From Escherichia phage dune, in sequence record MN850636.1: 64,000 bases of DNA; one strand, given 5' to 3'. Both the position numbers and the translations under genes were made by a program. The notes beneath the pieces were generated by a model, which was not told where the DNA came from, searched no databases, and saw nothing but the letters and a program-made list of their open reading frames with translations. Of this stretch, positions 7,938 to 50,316 are shown piece after piece (positions within the stretch are counted from its first letter, which is position 1; the number at the start of each line of letters is the position of its first letter).

Positions 7938-8723
7938 TTAGTTCTTTGCGTCTAAGAAGGTAACTTCTGGTGAAGAGAAAACTGTCTTGATATCCTCATC
8001 AGTTCTTGCATAGATATAAGTATCTGCATCACTGCCAAATGTTACTGCAATCCTGTGATTGCTCTTCGACAGGTGGGTAACTAGAGCGTTACTTAGAGAC
8101 ATCTTTTCAACCGGAGGGTTACTTTGATGTATCTTACCTTTTCTTCGTCTGAAGAGGGTAACTGCGTTATCCGTGAACACAACTACACCTGCAAAGTATT
8201 CTGGTTCACAGTAGTTTTTCCAACCTGAGAGTAACTTGTGGTACATCTCTCCTTCATAGACATACAGATAGACATCTACACTCTTCATCACCTGATTGAT
8301 GATAACTATGACAGCTTGAGGGTCCAGCCCACCAATACCTGCACCAATCATAGGTAGACCAACTTTCTTCAACTGATTCACTTCACAGTATCTGTTAAGC
8401 TGTTTCAAAGATGACTCTAAAGCACTGTATCGTGCATCTTTACCAGTCTTAAGCTGAGTGTAAAGGTTAGCTATACGACCTTGTTTTAAACGTGCTACAG
8501 AGAAATTACCCAGTAAATTTTCACAGGGTTTGTGGCCTATACCACCTGCATATAGATAAACTTCTGTATCGGTCTCATATGCTTTTGGGTAAAGTTTAGA
8601 AATCTTGTCAGCGATACCTGCACCCATTAAATTCATACAGTTGCAACCGTGACCAATGATGTCAAACTTACCTTTATCAAATGCGGCAAAGATATCGCCA
8701 TTGATGATTTTTACAATACCCAT
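7938..8723 (-). CDS. Macro-domain protein (ADP-ribose binding or hydrolase fold) with about 100 aa C-terminal extension
   Basis: 261 aa; IVKIINGDIFAA, DIIGHGCNCMNLMGAGIADKI and VGLPMIGAGIGGLD resemble macro-domain signature blocks; GGGAGAG RBS. Confidence 0.65.
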   Translation of the reverse strand: MGIVKIINGDIFAAFDKGKFDIIGHGCNCMNLMGAGIADKISKLYPKAYETDTEVYLYAGGIGHKPCENLLGNFSVARLKQGRIANLYTQLKTGKDARYSALESSLKQLNRYCEVNQLKKVGLPMIGAGIGGLDPQAVIVIINQVMKSVDVYLYVYEGEMYHKLLSGWKNYCEPEYFAGVVVFTDNAVTLFRRRKGKIHQSNPPVEKMSLSNALVTHLSKSNHRIAVTFGSDADTYIYARTDEDIKTVFSSPEVTFLDAKN

Positions 8724-8924
8724 TTAACATCTCTCCCAAGATTCTTTATCTTCTGAAGGTTTTACACGTTGCCCTTCGTGGTCTACCCAGATACACCCAC
8801 AGCCTTCACAGATTACTGGCATTGCATAACCAGCTTTAAAGTCATCTTCAGTGATAAGACCTTTTAAGTCACCTGTATCACGTCCGAACATTTCGATAGA
8901 ACAATCTTTACAGAAGTCAGCCAT
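8724..8924 (-). CDS. Small zinc-ribbon protein (CxxC..CxGC)
   Basis: Start taken at internal Met (MADFCKDC) to avoid overlap. Confidence 0.4.
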   Translation of the reverse strand: MADFCKDCSIEMFGRDTGDLKGLITEDDFKAGYAMPVICEGCGCIWVDHEGQRVKPSEDKESWERC

Positions 8925-9144
8925 GAATAATTGCCTCTTGAATGATGATACCTTTACCACAACGACTTTTAAAGTCTTCCAATGGTTCAGAGATGAAGCC
9001 ACGTAAGCAGTCAGTGAATACTAAGTTCTTCCTGTAAGCTATCACATCATTTGCTGTAAATGGGATGACCTCATTTCGTCCAATGAACACTGCTGACCTG
9101 ATAAGCTTTCGTGTCTTTTTATCTCTGGCTAGTATTACTTTCAT
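8917..9144 (-). CDS. Hypothetical protein
   Basis: 75 aa ORF. Confidence 0.4.
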   Translation of the reverse strand: MKVILARDKKTRKLIRSAVFIGRNEVIPFTANDVIAYRKNLVFTDCLRGFISEPLEDFKSRCGKGIIIQEAIIHG

Positions 9145-9484
9145 AGTTTACCTTCTCAGTTAGTTCATATAAATCAACATGCTCAATACTATCAATGTTG
9201 ATACCAATCTTTTTGAAGCGTTCTATCACTTCGTTGTCAGTCATCCATATCAGACACCAATGATTGTGGATGGATTCTTCAAGAAGGTCAACACAATCTT
9301 TAAAAGTTTTTGTATCACTTCTTGTTCCGACCACTGCGATTGTTCCATATAGCCACTTACCATTGCCATAAGATACTTGTGCTACACCAACTTCTTTATC
9401 GTTCTCGTAGTAAACGGCTACAAAGTCTCTTCCATTAATCTGCATTTGTAAGTTCCTCTGTTGGTAATTCACCATTTTCAGCAA
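9119..9484 (-). CDS. Hypothetical protein (start uncertain)
   Basis: 121 aa ORF; overlaps upstream ORF. Confidence 0.4.
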   Translation of the reverse strand: MLKMVNYQQRNLQMQINGRDFVAVYYENDKEVGVAQVSYGNGKWLYGTIAVVGTRSDTKTFKDCVDLLEESIHNHWCLIWMTDNEVIERFKKIGINIDSIEHVDLYELTEKVNYESNTSQR

Positions 9485-9749
9485 AGTATTGGAGGTACGG
9501 CAACAACTCTTTTACCTGTTCTTGATTGAGCTTCATTCTTTGATTGCCTACAAAATCTTTACCAACTAATGCTGGGATATCAAGTGTTTTCCAGCCACCA
9601 TCTAGGTACTGAACAGAGACCTCTTTAGCACCTAACCAGATACATGGTTCGTATGATGAACTCTCTTGTAAAGTACAAATTTCCCCTTTAGCATCTTTAA
9701 ATTCTGCATAAGAAAATCCACGATTTGTTGGCTGGAATTGCATAATCAT
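9435..9749 (-). CDS. Hypothetical protein
   Basis: 104 aa ORF. Confidence 0.4.
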   Translation of the reverse strand: MIMQFQPTNRGFSYAEFKDAKGEICTLQESSSYEPCIWLGAKEVSVQYLDGGWKTLDIPALVGKDFVGNQRMKLNQEQVKELLPYLQYFAENGELPTEELTNAD

Positions 9750-10015
9750 TTCCTCGTTTTAAGAACTGCTAAGATTTCTTTAGAGTCTGGTAAGAACCAT
9801 GTGTAGTGATTTTCTTTGATTTCTGGATGAGTGTCAACCTTTATTTTGCACTCTTTGCCAACATGCTTAAGTTGTGCTTTGACACCTTGCATAAAGATAT
9901 GGCACATCACATTATCCATGATGGTTGGTGAGAAATCAATTCGCATATAAGTTTCTTTTGGTCGTGGTAACAGTAAGTAACCTTCTACATAGAAAGTATC
10001 TTGATTCTCTGTCAT
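9746..10015 (-). CDS. Hypothetical protein
   Basis: 89 aa ORF, ATGA-type overlap with neighbour. Confidence 0.4.
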   Translation of the reverse strand: MTENQDTFYVEGYLLLPRPKETYMRIDFSPTIMDNVMCHIFMQGVKAQLKHVGKECKIKVDTHPEIKENHYTWFLPDSKEILAVLKTRK

Positions 10016-10281
10016 TGCTGCTTATTCCCTAATAAAATCATGTCAATAAGGTTATTAGCTTTGATTGTACACTGGTAAAAGCCGTCACGATAGAACTCAA
10101 GGGCTGCTGCTACATCACTGCCTGTGTTACCTTTGATGATATACCGTGATTCTTCTTGAGTGTACTTATCACTCTCACTTACTTGGGAGTTTTTGAATGT
10201 ACTGCTCACTTTGTTCGTTGAACACCCTGACATAGTTATCAGTAACACAAACATTATAAAACTCTGGCTTAGTTTTTTCAT
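10012..10281 (-). CDS. Putative outer-membrane lipoprotein; candidate o-spanin (Rz1-like)
   Basis: Signal peptide plus lipobox-like MSGC; start lies inside the 3' end of the upstream type II membrane protein gene. Confidence 0.4.
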   Translation of the reverse strand: MKKLSQSFIMFVLLITMSGCSTNKVSSTFKNSQVSESDKYTQEESRYIIKGNTGSDVAAALEFYRDGFYQCTIKANNLIDMILLGNKQQ

Positions 10282-10522
10282 ATGTTAGTACCTCTTTTGT
10301 ATGCTTATTCTTAGCAAGCACATCTTTCAAATCATTTTTGTAATTGGTGCTGAGTGTGGCTAATCCTTCCTGATAAGCATCTTTAGCAACACTTATGAGC
10401 TTTTGATTATTTAGCTCAGTTTCAGCAACTTGATAGTCTCTGTAAGAGTATCCCCCCCAGACACCTGCCCCAACTAAGAAAACAATTATGAAAGTGGCTT
10501 GACAGAACTCTTTAAATGTCAT
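10175..10522 (-). CDS. N-terminal TM protein with coiled-coil region; candidate i-spanin (Rz-like)
   Basis: 115 aa; hydrophobic N-terminus FIIVFLVGAGVWGG; overlaps the lipoprotein gene out of frame. Confidence 0.4.
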   Translation of the reverse strand: MTFKEFCQATFIIVFLVGAGVWGGYSYRDYQVAETELNNQKLISVAKDAYQEGLATLSTNYKNDLKDVLAKNKHTKEVLTYEKTKPEFYNVCVTDNYVRVFNEQSEQYIQKLPSK

Positions 10523-10540
10523 TTAACAATCTCCTAAAAT

Positions 10541-10563
10541 GAAAAAGGCTCCCGAAGGAGCCT
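10541..10563 (-). terminator. Rho-independent terminator (AGGCTCC-TTCG-GGAGCCT plus T-run)
   Basis: Perfect hairpin followed by TTTTT on minus strand. Confidence 0.55.
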
Positions 10564-10574
10564 GTATCTTAACC

Positions 10575-11039
10575 TTAACCGAGGACTTTAGCAAGGATAT
10601 TCGCAGCCATCGAAGAAGCTTTTGCAGCAGCAACTACGCCAGCTTTGACAGTGCTATCCTTAATAGCAGATACCGTTGCAGCATCAGTAAAGAGATAAGT
10701 GATTGTTTTAGAACCACTTGTAAAGGAAAGCATAAGAGTAGTTTCCAGATTGAAAGAGCGATACGGAGCACCTTCTTTAACGATACCTTCAGCACCTAAC
10801 TCTGAAGCCTTGCCCATATCATAGATAGTCATCAGGTTTTCTTTGTGTGCAGTAGTTGAACCAGCACCTTTTACGTGTTTTTTAACATTCAATAATGCAC
10901 GATATTCACGAATGCTGCCATCAGCTTTTACATTAACAGCACGAAAAATTTTACCTTCAAAGTTACCTTGAATCATTTTACGAACTATTGCAGATTTGTT
11001 TACCGTATCGTCCAGTGCTACCGTAATGATATTGTTCAT
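10575..11039 (-). CDS. Hypothetical protein
   Basis: 154 aa ORF. Confidence 0.45.
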   Translation of the reverse strand: MNNIITVALDDTVNKSAIVRKMIQGNFEGKIFRAVNVKADGSIREYRALLNVKKHVKGAGSTTAHKENLMTIYDMGKASELGAEGIVKEGAPYRSFNLETTLMLSFTSGSKTITYLFTDAATVSAIKDSTVKAGVVAAAKASSMAANILAKVLG

Positions 11040-11049
11040 AAGTTTTCTC

Positions 11050-11745
11050 TCAATGTTTAACTAACATGGTTTTAATGTGTGGAAGGATTCTGTTCACCTT
11101 CTGCACATTCTTCTCTGTGTCTTCTATAAAACATACTATATTAAAGTAAGGCAGGATGCAAGACTGAATCATCCTCACTTTCAAACTTTCTGCACTTATA
11201 GAGTTAGTTCCAAAACCACGCATAAAAAGCATGTAGTCATGCTCTATGTTGTGCCTTAAAAACATCTCAGTAGGTATTCTCTGAGATTCACCTCTCGCTG
11301 TCAAGAGTCCAATGGCAGCATGATTAGCAATTGCATCAATAATACTAAAGACATACGTTGGTTTTGCTCTTACAGAGTCAAGAAGATTAGTGTACTGTGA
11401 GAATGACCCATCAGTCAATTCCGTTGAGCAATCTTCGTGATTAAAATTTGTAAGAACACCATCAATATCTGCTAAGATGAGGTTACCTTTTTCTACAAGG
11501 TCTTTATTGACTATGACTAAGCTATCACGACTTACACCTATAGTTTGTCCAGTCTCTTTATCTACAACATTCACAATTGGTTCTGAGGTGTGGAAATCTT
11601 CAAGTGAACATACAACTTCTCTTGCAGTGTCTTCAAAATCCCTGCACTGTTCTGGAGTCCATACACAGGAATCAAGACCAAACTCATGAGGATGCAAGTC
11701 ATAAGCATGACACAGGACTTCATCAGACTTTCTTAATTTTTTCAT
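11050..11745 (-). CDS. Putative HAD-superfamily hydrolase (possible nucleotidase or phosphatase)
   Basis: 231 aa; LILADIDGVLTNF resembles HAD motif I (DxDGV). Confidence 0.35.
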   Translation of the reverse strand: MKKLRKSDEVLCHAYDLHPHEFGLDSCVWTPEQCRDFEDTAREVVCSLEDFHTSEPIVNVVDKETGQTIGVSRDSLVIVNKDLVEKGNLILADIDGVLTNFNHEDCSTELTDGSFSQYTNLLDSVRAKPTYVFSIIDAIANHAAIGLLTARGESQRIPTEMFLRHNIEHDYMLFMRGFGTNSISAESLKVRMIQSCILPYFNIVCFIEDTEKNVQKVNRILPHIKTMLVKH

Positions 11746-12271
11746 GATTTACCTTAGAAATGTTTGTTGCAAATTCACATTGAGCGATAACTTTCATATT
11801 GTTATAGACATCTTGAGAGTATTTCTTAGCTTTAGGGATTCTGTACGAATACCCAGCATTATATGATGCTAAAACTTTTTGTAAAGTCTTCTTTGACTTT
11901 GGCTGACCATGCACCTTTGTCCAAAACTCAAGCTCTTTGTGCGTTTCCTTCGCAGCATAGTCAAAGTCTTTTAAGAGTTTCTTTTTAGCCACATTAGGAC
12001 TAATTTTGTTACGCTTTACAACAGTCTTCAAGTGATTCTGGAAAATACCATAATCATGTGTCTTTTTATTCTCTACCTTCAGACCTAACTCTGACTCTTG
12101 TAAGGCTATAGCAGCTAGAGTGATACCCCAACCTTTGCCCATGTTATTCTCACCATACTGGTAAGCTTTTAACATGTTTACTTTTTGGCTAATTGATAGC
12201 TCTGGGCAGTCAACTGCATAAGATAAGTGTGCTGTAAACATTAAGCACAAACCTAGAATCAATTTCTTCAT
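11723..12271 (-). CDS. Secreted lytic transglycosylase (SLT domain)
   Basis: 182 aa; signal peptide MKKLILGLCLMFTAHLSYA; motifs QESEL, YGIFQ, SYNAG resemble the ES / GLMQ / AYNAG SLT blocks. Confidence 0.55.
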   Translation of the reverse strand: MKKLILGLCLMFTAHLSYAVDCPELSISQKVNMLKAYQYGENNMGKGWGITLAAIALQESELGLKVENKKTHDYGIFQNHLKTVVKRNKISPNVAKKKLLKDFDYAAKETHKELEFWTKVHGQPKSKKTLQKVLASYNAGYSYRIPKAKKYSQDVYNNMKVIAQCEFATNISKVNHEKIKKV

Positions 12272-12330
12272 TGGTTCTCCTGTTTAGTTTATCGTGACAA
12301 CAATTATACAGCACTCTGCACAAAATACAA

Positions 12331-12354
12331 ATAAAAAAGGCCGCCGAAGCAGCC
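12331..12354 (-). terminator. Rho-independent terminator downstream of rIIB-like gene
   Basis: GC-rich hairpin with TTCG loop followed by T-run on minus strand. Confidence 0.45.
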
Positions 12355-12371
12355 TTTTAAGAAGTTATTTA

Positions 12372-13481
12372 TTAGATTTCACGTTTACGTTGAGAGATAA
12401 GTTCTCCAGCAGTACCAACGATGACATGCAAAGCTTCAGTCTTGCCATCCCATTCTTTCAGCACTTTACGTTGATTATCAACGATTGCTGCAACTTCATA
12501 ACGAGACGAACGCATCTTCATATCGTTGTAATCAGTTGGAACAGATACAACATCTCGTGGATGGACACGAACCTTCAGGATTGTATCACCTGAGAAGCAA
12601 CGAACGTAATCCCAAGCACCAACGTGAAGACCTTGAGAGCAAGTCACGTTACGGTTATTATCAACCATCCAACGTGGCATTTCTACAATGTTACCCAAAT
12701 CATTAGGTACTCTGTAGGTGTGGGAGTCAACCAGCTTGCCTTCACGAGTAGAGACTTTCTTCCAACCAATGATGTAGCCTTCTTCATCAATTTCAACATC
12801 AAGGTGAGATACGAATCCCCAAAGTTGTTCTACAGAATCTTTAGATGGGTTTTCCATCAGTTTTTCGAAGAACATCACAAGGCGTTCAAAACCCTTATCT
12901 CCAGTCTTCATCATGTGAAGAATACGGTCAACCAGAGTAGAACGCATCTCAACAGCACCGTAGAATAACTTGTCACCTTTGATGGTGATAGCACCCTGAG
13001 TGAAGTTTTCGATAGACTTACGAATGTTCATCAGTTCGAAAGCTTTCTTATACTCACCGGATACAACAGCCATCACGATTTCTTTGTAGTTCGGATGGGT
13101 AGATTCAACGATTTCAGAATCTGCACCGAAAGTCATGATAACAGAGTCGCCAGTAATCATGTACTCAATCTGGTTGCCATTCTGCATAGCTTCATGCAGT
13201 TTATTTACCGGAGCTTTCTGTACAGGCTCTTTAACAACCTTTTCAACTGGTTTGTCAGCTTTCTTTTTAACTGATTTAGCAACTTGCTTCAAAGTCTTCG
13301 TAGCTGGTTTAGAAGCTACCTTTTTCTTACCTTTTAAGGTTGCTTCATGACGCTCTACAGCACGACCAACTGAACGGGTTGAAGTATTGAACTTCTGTGC
13401 AATAGCTGTTTTAGTCAGCTTACCTTCTTTAACCAGTTCGTAAATTTCTGCGTCAATCTGTGCTTTAGTTTTAGTAGTCAT
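12372..13481 (-). CDS. rIIB: rIIB-like protein (by position after rIIA-like gene) with Lys-rich N-terminal region
   Basis: 369 aa; immediately downstream of GHKL-ATPase rIIA-like gene; T4 rIIB is of similar size. Confidence 0.4.
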   Translation of the reverse strand: MTTKTKAQIDAEIYELVKEGKLTKTAIAQKFNTSTRSVGRAVERHEATLKGKKKVASKPATKTLKQVAKSVKKKADKPVEKVVKEPVQKAPVNKLHEAMQNGNQIEYMITGDSVIMTFGADSEIVESTHPNYKEIVMAVVSGEYKKAFELMNIRKSIENFTQGAITIKGDKLFYGAVEMRSTLVDRILHMMKTGDKGFERLVMFFEKLMENPSKDSVEQLWGFVSHLDVEIDEEGYIIGWKKVSTREGKLVDSHTYRVPNDLGNIVEMPRWMVDNNRNVTCSQGLHVGAWDYVRCFSGDTILKVRVHPRDVVSVPTDYNDMKMRSSRYEVAAIVDNQRKVLKEWDGKTEALHVIVGTAGELISQRKREI

Positions 13482-13560
13482 CTTATTACTCTCTCTTGTT
13501 AGTTAATAAATCATTTTGTAAGGCTATTCTAAGGGGCTTCGAAGCCCCTTGTCAAACACT

Positions 13561-42379: not shown

Positions 42380-42616
42380 ATGTGGAAATCAGTAATTGCG
42401 CTTGGTGTTATTTTTCTATCTGGCTGCAAACCTTCTTATGAAGATAAAAATGCTTCTTACAGCCTCCCACCAGAGATGCAAGATTGCAGAGTATACAAGT
42501 TACATGGTGATGCTATAAGCAGAGATATTGTTGTTGTCAGATGTCCAAACTCCCAAACAACAACATCTTATAGCTATGGCAAAAATGGTCAATCACACAC
42601 TACGGTTATTGAGTGA
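42380..42616 (+). CDS. Putative lipoprotein (start moved to MWKSV)
   Basis: Signal peptide and lipobox LSGC. Confidence 0.4.
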   Translation: MWKSVIALGVIFLSGCKPSYEDKNASYSLPPEMQDCRVYKLHGDAISRDIVVVRCPNSQTTTSYSYGKNGQSHTTVIE

Positions 42617-49715: not shown

Positions 49716-49760
49716 CAAAAAAGGCTCCCGTAAAAAGGAGCCTTAAAATTTTATTTTTCA
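49716..49760. terminator. Bidirectional rho-independent terminator at the convergence point
   Basis: AAGGCTCC-CGTAAAA-AGGAGCCTT hairpin flanked by A-run upstream and T-run downstream. Confidence 0.6.
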
Positions 49761-50122
49761 GTATTCTTTGTGTTCTTTTCAGTAATAGCTTGGAGGGCTG
49801 ATACTGATTGAGCCAGATTGTTAACACTATCAGAGAATTTATCAAGAGTCTTAGTAAGCTTTGCATTCTCTCCCTTAACATTCTCTAACTGGACTTTCTG
49901 GTTCTCCATCCCTAGCTGAAGCAGCCTCATATCAGACTGTAAATCACGAATAGCTGAATAATTACTTTTGGAATAATTATCTAGCTGCTGTAACTTTGTT
50001 GTAATAGACACTTCTTGCTTACCATCCGAGACTTGCATGGTGGTATACATCCCAATAACACTAAAAATACCAACTACAATTGCACCAATATTGTTTTTAA
50101 AAGCTTCCTCTAGCCACTTCAT
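49751..50122 (-). CDS. Membrane-anchored coiled-coil protein (lysis- or tail-associated)
   Basis: 123 aa; hydrophobic N-terminus AIVVGIFSVIGMY then heptad-like repeats. Confidence 0.4.
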   Translation of the reverse strand: MKWLEEAFKNNIGAIVVGIFSVIGMYTTMQVSDGKQEVSITTKLQQLDNYSKSNYSAIRDLQSDMRLLQLGMENQKVQLENVKGENAKLTKTLDKFSDSVNNLAQSVSALQAITEKNTKNTEK

Positions 50123-50316
50123 TTATTCTCCCCCTTAAAAGCTTTTTCTAAGTTATCTACGAACTCATCATCAATAGGTGTGTCTGTTTTACTCGCAAGA
50201 TATCTTGCAAGCTTAAAGAACACTTTCTCAATCATGTATTCACTTAGAAGGGATAAAATGAGTTTCCAGAAGAAGCTACCTAGATTTTTTAGAAGAATTG
50301 CTAGGATTGTAGGCAT
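50119..50316 (-). CDS. Small hydrophobic protein
   Basis: 65 aa ORF. Confidence 0.35.
   Translation of the reverse strand: MPTILAILLKNLGSFFWKLILSLLSEYMIEKVFFKLARYLASKTDTPIDDEFVDNLEKAFKGENK

Follow-up and report, generated by a model that had tools for sequence, protein, structure and literature searches.

Two overlapping minus-strand open reading frames (ORFs), 10175-10522 and 10012-10281, very probably encode the two-component spanin of a Felix O1-like phage, arranged in the 'overlapped' architecture. They lie in a 64,000-nucleotide stretch of Escherichia phage dune (MN850636.1; hereafter the window), a Felixounavirus (Felix O1-like myophage) genome segment that in this region shares about 96% identity with Felix O1 and with over 230 Felixounavirus genomes. 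We infer spanin function from topology signals and architecture, from conservation and from a lysis-cassette setting in one case, that of phage Solent. A spanin pair had been proposed at this place from the DNA letters alone (the sequence-only reading), and the proposal gains support from a match to PHROG 1152, from the annotation of relatives, from a published catalogue entry and from the Solent lysis cassette.

The pair is already known and is an ordinary feature of these phages. Kongari et al. 2018 (PMC6139136) catalogued the Felix01 genes among the overlapped two-component spanins and assigned them to the JH2 i-spanin and o-spanin families, with products of 115 and 89 amino acids, a 107-nt overlap, one periplasmic cysteine in the i-spanin and 66% predicted helix. 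The same families also hold Moogle, Mushroom, wV8 and UAB_Phi87 and, for the i-spanin only, phiEco32-type phages (PMC6139136). The window proteins are 98-99% identical to the Felix01 JH2 entries, which places them in both families. In Felix O1 the same genes are ORF6 and ORF7 (Felix01p014/p015), with the same product lengths (115 and 89 residues), 107-nt overlap, +1 frame and Shine-Dalgarno sequence; they differ from the window genes by a few substitutions, for example i-spanin A55 here versus V55 in Felix O1, none of them structural. Several close relatives label both genes i-spanin and o-spanin in GenBank. Pfam and NCBIfam scans of both proteins returned only sub-threshold, irrelevant matches and no spanin family, and in the literature we searched no member of the JH2-type spanin family had been the subject of a direct experiment.

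The longer gene encodes a predicted inner-membrane subunit

The i-spanin gene (10175..10522, minus strand, from the ORF list) encodes 115 amino acids, with a predicted N-terminal transmembrane helix followed by a mostly helical periplasmic domain of 88 residues. Kyte-Doolittle analysis placed the helix, FCQATFIIVFLVGAGVWGG, at codons 6-24 (10451..10507, minus strand), the top 19-residue hydrophobic window of the protein with a mean of 1.75, and all aligned i-spanin homologs have a hydrophobic segment at the N-terminus. The remaining 88 residues after the helix are hydrophilic, and JPred assigns 66% helix to this part (Kongari Table S2, PMC6139136). By analogy with known i-spanins the orientation would be N-in/C-out; lysine or arginine residues stand on both sides of the helix, so that charge bias alone cannot give this topology. 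The sequence-only reading was thus right about the ORF and its transmembrane helix, both on the minus strand; the 'coiled-coil-like' region that it placed behind the helix was not confirmed, as Pepcoil scores the coiled coil of the Felix O1 i-spanin as 0 (Kongari Table S3, PMC6139136).

The protein matched PHROG 1152, 'Rz-like spanin', with E = 9e-42. It shares 100% identity with a phage Barry protein and 99% with the proteins annotated as i-spanins in VSe102 and SapYZU01, and it corresponds to Felix01 ORF6 in Kongari Table S1 (PMC6139136). The protein has a conserved C-terminal motif, EKTKxxFxNxCxxxxYxxxFN, and an alignment across five phage lineages shows invariant residues. Within it lies Cys92, the sole periplasmic cysteine (codon 10247..10249, minus strand, from the homolog alignment), which is invariant in six homologs from the five lineages and in 21 distinct close variants. 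An AlphaFold2 model built from the single sequence was of low confidence (pLDDT 48.9).

The shorter gene encodes a predicted outer-membrane lipoprotein

The o-spanin gene (10012..10281, minus strand) is read in the +1 frame relative to the i-spanin gene. It encodes an 89-residue precursor with the N-terminus MKKLSQSFIMFVLLITMSGC, and the predicted mature lipoprotein has 70 residues. A PROSITE-style lipobox pattern delimits a lipoprotein signal peptide, MKKLSQSFIMFVLLITMSG followed by Cys (10222..10281, minus strand), in which the lipobox, within ITMSG-C, occupies codons 17-20 (10222-10233, minus strand) and ends in the predicted lipidated Cys20 (codon 10222-10224, minus strand). The n-region carries K2 and K3, the h-region is uncharged and the cleavage site fits [AGS]-C. 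Because the signal continues as MKKLSQSFIMFVLLITMSG-C-S-T, with Ser at +2, the protein has no Asp inner-membrane retention signal. The SGC of the lipobox, replaced by SAC or ASC in distant homologs, is kept in all relatives. The lipoprotein ORF with a signal peptide and MSGC lipobox that had been noticed on first inspection is therefore present on the minus strand, its lipobox is valid under the PROSITE-type rule, and the ORF is kept in all 31 distinct relatives.

Like its partner, the o-spanin is most conserved in its C-terminal region, where a conserved motif reads EFYRD..Y.C...N.L.D. Homologs at 29-45% identity retain Cys20, Thr22, Gly54, Cys71, Asn76 and Leu78. Cys71 (codon 10069..10071, minus strand) is the only periplasmic cysteine of the mature protein besides the lipidated Cys20, and it is invariant in 11 homologs and 21 distinct close variants. 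The proline-rich periplasmic segment that had been suggested as a check for an o-spanin is missing, the mature protein containing 0 Pro; this trait is confined to the lambda Rz1 family, and the T4 o-spanin family does without it too (PMC6139136). An AlphaFold2 model from a 7-sequence alignment was again of low confidence (pLDDT 52.1).

The o-spanin shares 100% identity with the protein annotated as o-spanin in phage ESCO45; its best PHROG is 4180, 'unknown function', and it weakly matches the spanin PHROG 456 (E = 3e-4). The Felix O1 RefSeq record names it 'hypothetical protein'. A search of a large protein database recovered close relatives only (at least 74% identity), many of them truncated, and did not widen the family; tblastn against a phage collection yielded more. 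Some database entries, 73 and 68 amino acids long, begin only after the signal peptide. A start at Met10, as given in the nataliec record, was rejected, since the precursor would then lose its K/R n-region and the Moogle clade does not conserve Met10. We also considered ORF 42380-42616, which alone among the remaining ORFs of the 64-kb window has a lipobox, as an alternative o-spanin and rejected it, there being no adjacent membrane-protein gene.

Both frames of the overlap are conserved

The two genes share 107 nt (10175..10281, minus strand), which encode i-spanin residues 81-115 together with o-spanin residues 1-35. The o-spanin gene starts 241 nt into the i-spanin gene in the +1 frame and extends 163 nt beyond its end, and for this reason the pair is 'overlapped' and not 'embedded'. 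A lipoprotein start inside the 3' part of the first ORF, in another frame, had been correctly recognised from the letters, but the description of the arrangement as 'embedded' and as the 'classic Rz/Rz1 organisation' was wrong, since the genes overlap in the manner of P2 lysB/lysC. In P2, too, the o-gene starts inside the 3' part of the i-gene in the other frame and ends beyond it, and the predicted topologies are the same (PMC6139136). The P2 proteins nevertheless form their own i- and o-spanin families (PMC6139136), and LysB/LysC belong to a lysis cassette, whereas the window pair lies outside one. Kongari Table S4 lists the same 107-nt overlap for Felix01, FO1a and FSL_SP-010/012 (PMC6139136).

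To what extent is the second frame a gene at all? One reading holds that the 89 codons are a non-functional alternative-frame ORF over the end of a real gene and that only the membrane protein is made. Many gene callers and records omit or truncate the lipoprotein ORF, which in the Felix O1 RefSeq is merely hypothetical, the 73- and 68-residue database entries begin after the signal peptide, and one comparative paper reports the i-spanin alone in one phage (PMC8300805). However, both frames are open at identical coordinates in 31/31 distinct related sequences. In the part that only the i-spanin occupies, nucleotide diversity is highest at i-frame third codon positions (0.217 versus 0.075 and 0.052); in the 163 nt beyond the i-spanin stop it is highest at o-frame third positions (0.308 versus 0.077 and 0.048). 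Within the overlap, diversity falls to 0.051, compared with 0.114 and 0.145 in the flanks, a 2-3-fold drop (Mann-Whitney p = 5e-6 and 2e-9) that comes with no codon periodicity. This pattern of variation shows each frame to be coding, with both under purifying selection and the overlap doubly constrained.

The ORF, its Shine-Dalgarno sequence, its lipobox and Cys71 are moreover kept in all 31 close relatives, as well as in homologs about 30% identical. That gene callers leave out overlapped o-spanin genes is itself a documented artefact (PMC6139136). We therefore give the notion of a non-functional frame practically no credence: as judged from comparative sequence data, it is already contradicted by conservation. 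The spanin pair is instead a textbook case of gene callers missing or truncating overlapped o-spanin genes. Beyond correct annotation it matters little; Felix O1-like phages do serve Salmonella diagnostics and biocontrol, so that a full inventory of their lysis genes is of practical value. Where the genes overlap, the i-spanin's conserved C-terminus shares its DNA with the o-spanin's signal peptide and linker, which tolerate sequence change.

Homologous pairs occur in distant phages, once within a lysis cassette

Homologs of both proteins are found in phiEa21-4, Hafnia phage Zyzzx, the phiEco32-like phage Bas93 and the 9NA-like phage Solent. These pairs of Erwinia, Hafnia, phiEco32-like and 9NA-like phages are 28-34% identical to the window pair, and each has a lipobox and an overlap of 116-164 nt. 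In Solent, a Salmonella phage of the genus Sashavirus, both subunits (CPT_Solent_067/067a) are homologous to the window proteins (28% and 33% identity; E = 8e-9 and 2e-12) and overlapped, with the lipobox, the EKT..F.N.C motif and the C-terminal Cys of the o-spanin conserved. There the pair directly follows holin-endolysin-holin genes in a canonical lysis cassette (holin-endolysin-holin-spanin) and, unlike the window pair, is not preceded by an upstream hairpin. The window pair shows the features by which two-component spanins are recognised: a small i-spanin with a single transmembrane segment, a lipoprotein without Asp at +2, adjacent genes with the i-spanin first, and periplasmic cysteines. 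The latter comprise one invariant periplasmic Cys per subunit (C92 in the i-spanin and C71 in the o-spanin), for which disulfide formation is predicted; at least one periplasmic cysteine is present in 507 of the 528 catalogued spanin systems (PMC6139136).

In the window the surroundings are different. The pair sits among early/middle genes (rIIA, rIIB, polynucleotide kinase), behind a terminator-like hairpin. A homolog of Moogle's putative holin is encoded at 49751-50122, about 40 kb from the pair, and no match to a lysozyme-type endolysin was found within the window. The earlier impression that no obvious holin is adjacent and that lysis genes may be dispersed thus holds up, in agreement with published accounts (PMC4319497 and PMC3185647). 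In Felix O1-like phages, as in T4, the spanin genes usually stand outside a lysis cassette.

This setting bears on a second reading, in which the lipoprotein is of the superinfection-exclusion or receptor-masking type (T5 Llp, lambdoid Cor), the membrane protein is unrelated or likewise serves exclusion, and neither acts in lysis. It would fit the position of the pair among early/middle genes such as rIIA, rIIB and polynucleotide kinase, at a great distance from the candidate holin and endolysin genes, as well as the 'unknown function' of PHROG 4180 and the missing Rz1-type proline-rich region. Yet the lipoprotein always overlaps the same i-spanin family, across myo-, podo- and siphophages with different receptors; in Solent the homologous pair closes a holin-endolysin cassette; and PHROG 1152 is a spanin family, while no Llp- or Cor-type family appeared among the PHROG, Pfam or NCBIfam matches. 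The T4 spanins likewise lie away from t and e, next to pseT (PMC6139136). We consider an exclusion function very unlikely and a spanin function the better account of the same genes.

The secreted soluble lytic transglycosylase (SLT) noticed nearby also exists, with a qualification as to its family score. The ORF (11723-12271), 1.2 kb upstream of the pair and transcribed in the same direction, encodes 182 amino acids with a predicted cleavable signal peptide. Its translation contains the ES, GIFQ and SYNAG motifs of SLT lytic transglycosylases, and its match to Pfam SLT is just under the gathering score (E = 9e-4, 19.2 versus 21.3 bits); a PDB sequence search with the protein returned no match. 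This SLT-like protein is not the known endolysin of Felix O1-like phages.

Comparison with lambda and T4 and a model for function

The lambda Rz/Rz1 proteins resemble the window pair in several respects. Both systems combine an inner-membrane protein bearing an N-terminal transmembrane domain with an outer-membrane lipoprotein (predicted here), in both the o-gene lies in the +1 frame, periplasmic cysteines are available for intermolecular disulfides, and the combined periplasmic lengths are similar (88 + 70 residues here). By contrast, Rz1 is wholly embedded in Rz whereas the window genes only overlap; the proline-rich region of Rz1 is functionally essential whereas the window o-spanin has no proline; and Rz has two coiled-coil domains, of which Pepcoil predicts none in the Felix O1 protein. 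Among the Pfam matches of the window proteins, neither an Rz nor an Rz1 family appeared even at E <= 1. With neither coiled coil nor proline-rich region, the pair therefore lacks both features implicated in lambda spanin fusion, which makes this family a possible contrast case for the mechanism of spanins.

T4 offers a parallel of another kind. Its i-spanin PseT.3 and its o-spanin PseT.2 also lie outside a lysis cassette, with holin and endolysin elsewhere, and near a gene for polynucleotide kinase, among early/middle genes; the T4 o-spanin, too, has no proline-rich region (PMC6139136). The differences are that the T4 genes have the separated architecture and stand upstream, not downstream, of pseT, and that the T4 i-spanin has no periplasmic cysteine and the o-spanin two (PMC6139136). 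BLASTP gave no alignment between the window i-spanin and PseT.3 and aligned only the signal peptide of the window o-spanin with PseT.2 (E = 0.04), and the product of ORF 10575-11039 is unrelated to T4 PseT.1. Given this lack of sequence similarity, the shared proximity to polynucleotide kinase is not backed by homology.

On the model established for lambda Rz/Rz1 and T4 PseT.3/PseT.2, the i-spanin would be anchored in the inner membrane, and its C-terminal domain would lie in the periplasm. The o-spanin precursor would be processed as a Sec/LspA-type lipoprotein, lipidated on Cys20 and Lol-sorted to the inner leaflet of the outer membrane. The C-terminal regions, which are the most conserved parts of both subunits, would then bind each other to give a complex that reaches across the periplasm through the peptidoglycan mesh, and C92 and C71 would each probably be joined in homotypic intermolecular disulfides with the help of host Dsb. 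After the destruction of the murein by holin and endolysin, the complexes would be free to collapse and would fuse the inner and outer membranes, so removing the last barrier to virion release.

A lysis or envelope role without lambda-like fusion can also be envisaged, either as a covalent C92-C71 tether between the inner and outer membranes or as an accessory role for the SLT-like transglycosylase. Exactly one invariant periplasmic cysteine is found per subunit, both within conserved C-terminal segments; neither a coiled coil nor a proline-rich region is predicted; and a gene for an SLT-like protein with a signal peptide lies 1.2 kb upstream and is transcribed in the same direction. The disulfides of lambda and T4 are homotypic, however, and heterotypic bonds are not usual (PMC6139136), in Bas93 and Solent the SLT-like gene shows no linkage to the spanin genes, and nothing in the sequence requires a different mechanism. 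Such a role strikes us as highly improbable beside membrane fusion by a conventional spanin complex.

Expression signals and a hairpin upstream of the pair

Each gene is preceded by a recognisable Shine-Dalgarno sequence. That of the i-spanin, AGGAG (10531..10535, minus strand), was read from the sequence, and the same element is given in Kongari Table S1 (PMC6139136). That of the o-spanin, GAGG (10291..10294, minus strand), lies 9 nt upstream of the ATG, inside the i-spanin codons K-E-V, and is invariant in 31/31 related sequences.

Between the upstream gene (10575-11039) and the i-spanin gene, a terminator scan and folding revealed a hairpin resembling a Rho-independent terminator (10538..10563, minus strand; AGGCTCC-TTCG-GGAGCCT followed by a T-tract), whose end lies about 15 nt ahead of the i-spanin start codon. 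It corresponds to terminator t5 (5291..5316) of Felix O1 (PMC3185647). Hairpins with a different stem sequence occupy the same position in phiEa21-4, Zyzzx and Bas93, so that four divergent phage lineages have a terminator-like hairpin some 15-20 nt upstream of the start of the i-spanin gene.

Two more speculative proposals can be made. In the absence of a coiled coil and a proline-rich region, and with one invariant cysteine per subunit in the C-terminal segments thought to interact, the pair might work through a covalent heterotypic i-o disulfide or by a fusion mode otherwise unlike that of lambda. Separately, the hairpin might be a conserved gate or timer of spanin expression and not just the terminator of the gene that happens to precede it. 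Both ideas seem to us unlikely. In Felix O1 the transcript of ORF6 peaks 25 min after infection, in the same class as that of the lysin gene ORF35 (PMC3185647).

Two overlapping genes encode candidate spanin subunits

The sequence-only reading had proposed a spanin pair in two ORFs, and both were found where it had placed them, on the (-) strand. The first, encoding the putative inner-membrane subunit (i-spanin; 10175-10522, 115 aa), is preceded by an AGGAG Shine-Dalgarno. Residues 6-24 of its product (FCQATFIIVFLVGAGVWGG) are the sole strongly hydrophobic stretch (mean Kyte-Doolittle 1.75), outside which lie 88 hydrophilic, charge-balanced residues with one cysteine. The protein matched PHROG 1152 'Rz-like spanin' (E = 9e-42) and is 100% identical to its homolog in phage Barry. 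The second ORF, for the putative outer-membrane lipoprotein (o-spanin; 10012-10281), encodes an 89-aa precursor beginning MKKLSQSFIMFVLLITMSGC, with the K/R within the first seven residues, uncharged core and [AGS]-Cys of a PROSITE-type lipoprotein rule, the Cys being at position 20. The +2 residue is Ser rather than the Asp of a retention signal. Once mature, the protein is 70 residues long, with 0 proline and one cysteine besides that of the lipobox. This lipoprotein matched PHROG 4180 ('unknown function') strongly and spanin PHROG 456 weakly, and is 100% identical to the annotated o-spanin of ESCO45.

The two genes had been described as embedded. The o-spanin ORF begins 241 nt into the i-spanin ORF in the +1 frame, shares 107 nt with it and extends 163 nt beyond its stop codon, so the arrangement is instead overlapped. 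In public records the o-spanin gene is often shortened or unlabelled (database entries; MN850611, MW749004, PQ850593): versions of 73 and 68 aa begin past the n-region or signal peptide, the Felix O1 RefSeq label is 'hypothetical protein', and the Zyzzx and Bas93 records annotate fragments of 59 and 57 aa that lack the lipobox. The full-length lipoprotein frame, including the signal peptide, is present in both of these phages despite the shortened annotation. Conservation of the Met10 start does not extend to the Moogle clade.

Both reading frames are conserved

For comparison, the corresponding 511 nt were collected from 33 related GenBank and IMG/VR loci (78-98% nucleotide identity). Both frames were open with identical starts and stops in 31/31 distinct sequences, which amount to 21 different variants of either protein. 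The lipobox SGC and both periplasmic cysteines were unchanged in all 21 variants of each, and the GAGG Shine-Dalgarno of the o-spanin was invariant in the 31 sequences despite its position within coding sequence. Nucleotide diversity at codon positions 1/2/3 was 0.075/0.052/0.217 in the i-only part (i-frame) and 0.077/0.048/0.308 in the o-only part (o-frame); in its unshared part, each frame is therefore the one that codes. Within the overlap, diversity fell to 0.051 and lost its periodicity, as expected if both frames are constrained, and the third-position drop was significant in both (Mann-Whitney p = 5e-6 and 2e-9). At the level of sequence, these patterns show two overlapping coding frames, both under selection. 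The overlap encodes i-spanin residues 81-115, its most conserved part, and is tolerable because these share their DNA with the stretch of the o-spanin that depends least on exact sequence, the signal peptide and N-terminal linker.

Distant homologs include a lysis cassette

A tblastn search of 50,697 phage records found the lipoprotein in 342 and the membrane protein in 404, with the two genes adjacent in every case inspected. Four other lineages carry homologous pairs (25-45% identity) and are represented by phiEa21-4 (Erwinia phage, Kolesnikvirus), Zyzzx (Hafnia phage), Bas93 (phiEco32-like podophage) and Solent (9NA-like siphophage). In all four, the first protein has a hydrophobic helix at its N-terminus, the second has a lipobox (TASC, TSGC, TSAC, ISAC), and the genes overlap by 116-164 nt. 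Invariant across lineages are G24, L37, L65, E82, K83, F88, N90, C92, Y97 and N102 of the i-spanin, and M1, L4, L13, C20, T22, G54, C71, N76 and L78 of the o-spanin. Both Solent subunits are significantly similar to those of the window (E = 8e-9 and 2e-12), and the Solent pair directly follows holin/antiholin, endolysin and holin/antiholin genes. This cassette ties the spanin family to lysis by genomic context.

The pair is already catalogued and annotated. Several GenBank relatives carry i-spanin and o-spanin labels on the two genes, and a spanin census lists Felix01, FO1a and UAB_phi87 in its 'Overlapped' class, assigned to the JH2 i-spanin and JH2 o-spanin sequence families (PMC6139136). 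The Felix01 genes lie at 5330..5678 and 5571..5841 with a 107-nt overlap and products of 115 and 89 aa (PMC6139136, supplementary tables). Judged by near-identity, the window pair belongs to JH2, and it carries every sequence-testable feature of the two-component spanin class. The central interpretation of the sequence-only reading is essentially correct, with PHROG 1152, the JH2 census entry and the Solent cassette in agreement.

The likeness to lambda Rz/Rz1 did not hold. Lambda Rz/Rz1 is embedded whereas this pair is overlapped, and it has neither a proline-rich region nor a predicted coiled coil. Since a proline-rich segment is specific to the Rz1 family, the proline-free mature o-spanin is no argument against a spanin. 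The coiled-coil-like region that had been suggested is unsupported: in the Felix01 i-spanin, Pepcoil finds no coiled coil, and the periplasmic domain has 66% predicted helix and one cysteine (PMC6139136). No Pfam Rz/Rz1 profile matched either protein; profile search, architecture and the lack of a proline-rich region and of a predicted coiled coil all place it outside the lambda families. Sequence comparison likewise rejected the T4 PseT.3/PseT.2 family, the T4 and window spanins having no detectable similarity. In gene architecture the pair resembles P2 lysB/lysC.

By analogy with the lambda and T4 spanin paradigms (PMC6139136), the 115-aa protein, with its N-terminal hydrophobic helix, would most likely sit in the inner membrane in type II orientation. 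The mature lipoprotein of 70 aa, whose signal has an outer-membrane-type +2 residue, would be attached to the outer membrane at its inner leaflet. Both proteins would join through their conserved C-terminal segments into a periplasm-spanning complex, and the one invariant periplasmic cysteine per subunit probably provides Dsb-dependent intermolecular disulfides that stabilise it. Once holin and endolysin had removed the murein, the complex would fuse both membranes.

Genome setting and transcription

Megablast with window 9000-13500 matched 276 phage records, and 238 of these span 80% or more of the query. The top matches, at 95-96.5% identity, are Felixounavirus genomes, among them Salmonella phage Felix O1 (96.3%). 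Gene order on the (-) strand is rIIA, rIIB, a T4 Vs.1-like secreted protein, polynucleotide kinase, ORF5, i-spanin and o-spanin, as annotated around the spanins in Felix O1, UAB_69 and nataliec. T4 and Felix O1-like phages both have their spanin genes apart from holin and endolysin and no more than ~1 kb from the polynucleotide kinase gene (window 11050-11745, (-); T4 locus, 5003-6782), but the T4 order is the reverse. Such proximity would be either chance or a very ancient linkage.

Some 15-20 nt, too few for a promoter, separate the start codon of the i-spanin from the end of a terminator-like GC hairpin and its T-tract (10538-10563, (-)). Hairpins with different stems occupy the same position in phiEa21-4 (~2246-2265 of its locus), Zyzzx (~2437-2460) and Bas93 (~2228-2250), although the genes upstream differ; none precedes the i-spanin in Solent, where the pair lies in the lysis cassette. 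The Felix O1 hairpin upstream of ORF6, the i-spanin gene, is catalogued as terminator t5; transcript levels are highest at 25 min for ORF6, which shares the class of ORF35, and at 10 min for ORF5 (PMC3185647). The hairpin might conceivably gate expression of the spanin genes.

On the 3' side of the pair are small genes of no assigned function and a macro-domain protein (7938-8723, (-); Pfam Macro E = 1.5e-7), a homolog of T4 Tk.4 annotated as 'phosphatase' in Felix O1, whose phiEa21-4 counterpart immediately follows the o-spanin gene. A small Cys-rich protein (~8724-8924, (-); MADFCKDCSIEMFG...CEGCGC...), conserved in Felix O1-like phages, is probably a zinc ribbon; its gene directly follows the o-spanin gene in Zyzzx (2977-3177 of its locus).

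Other lysis genes are dispersed

Dispersal of the lysis genes, suspected from sequence, is supported. Felix O1-like lysis genes are scattered (Moogle genome announcement, PMC4319497), and Felix O1 has no holin-lysin cassette, its lysin being gp35 (PMC3185647). A homolog of Moogle's 'putative holin' (93% identity) lies at 49751-50122 (-), just downstream of the tail-fibre gene and preceded by a gene (50119-50316, (-)) whose 65-aa product is hydrophobic at its N-terminus. The homolog has 123 aa, with a single TMD at the N-terminus and a C-terminal domain that is long, helical and heptad-looking; it belongs to PHROG 4038 (unknown function), with a very weak spanin PHROG match (E = 0.0097). Holin assignment in these phages is no more than a guess. 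Five different candidates are named for Felix O1 (PMC3185647). Moogle's lysozyme-type endolysin had no match within the window; by synteny, the endolysin should lie a few kb past its left end.

The nearby protein that had been read as a secreted SLT transglycosylase (11723-12271, (-), 182 aa) does have a signal peptide (...SYA|VD) and the SLT motifs ES/GIFQ/SYNAG, but its Pfam SLT score falls just under the gathering score, and a PDB sequence search returned no match. It is a homolog of T4 Vs.1 ('20.7 kD protein in vs-regB region') and is not the recognised endolysin of Felix O1-like phages. Some records call it 'putative lysin', and at its 3' end its gene shares 23 nt with the start of the polynucleotide kinase gene. 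The lone other lipobox ORF in the window (42380-42616, (+); MWKSVIALGVIFLSG|C, 78 aa, three more cysteines) has no adjoining membrane-protein partner. Its product, from PHROG 902 (unknown function) and encoded in the replication-gene region near DNA ligase, may be an exclusion-type lipoprotein.
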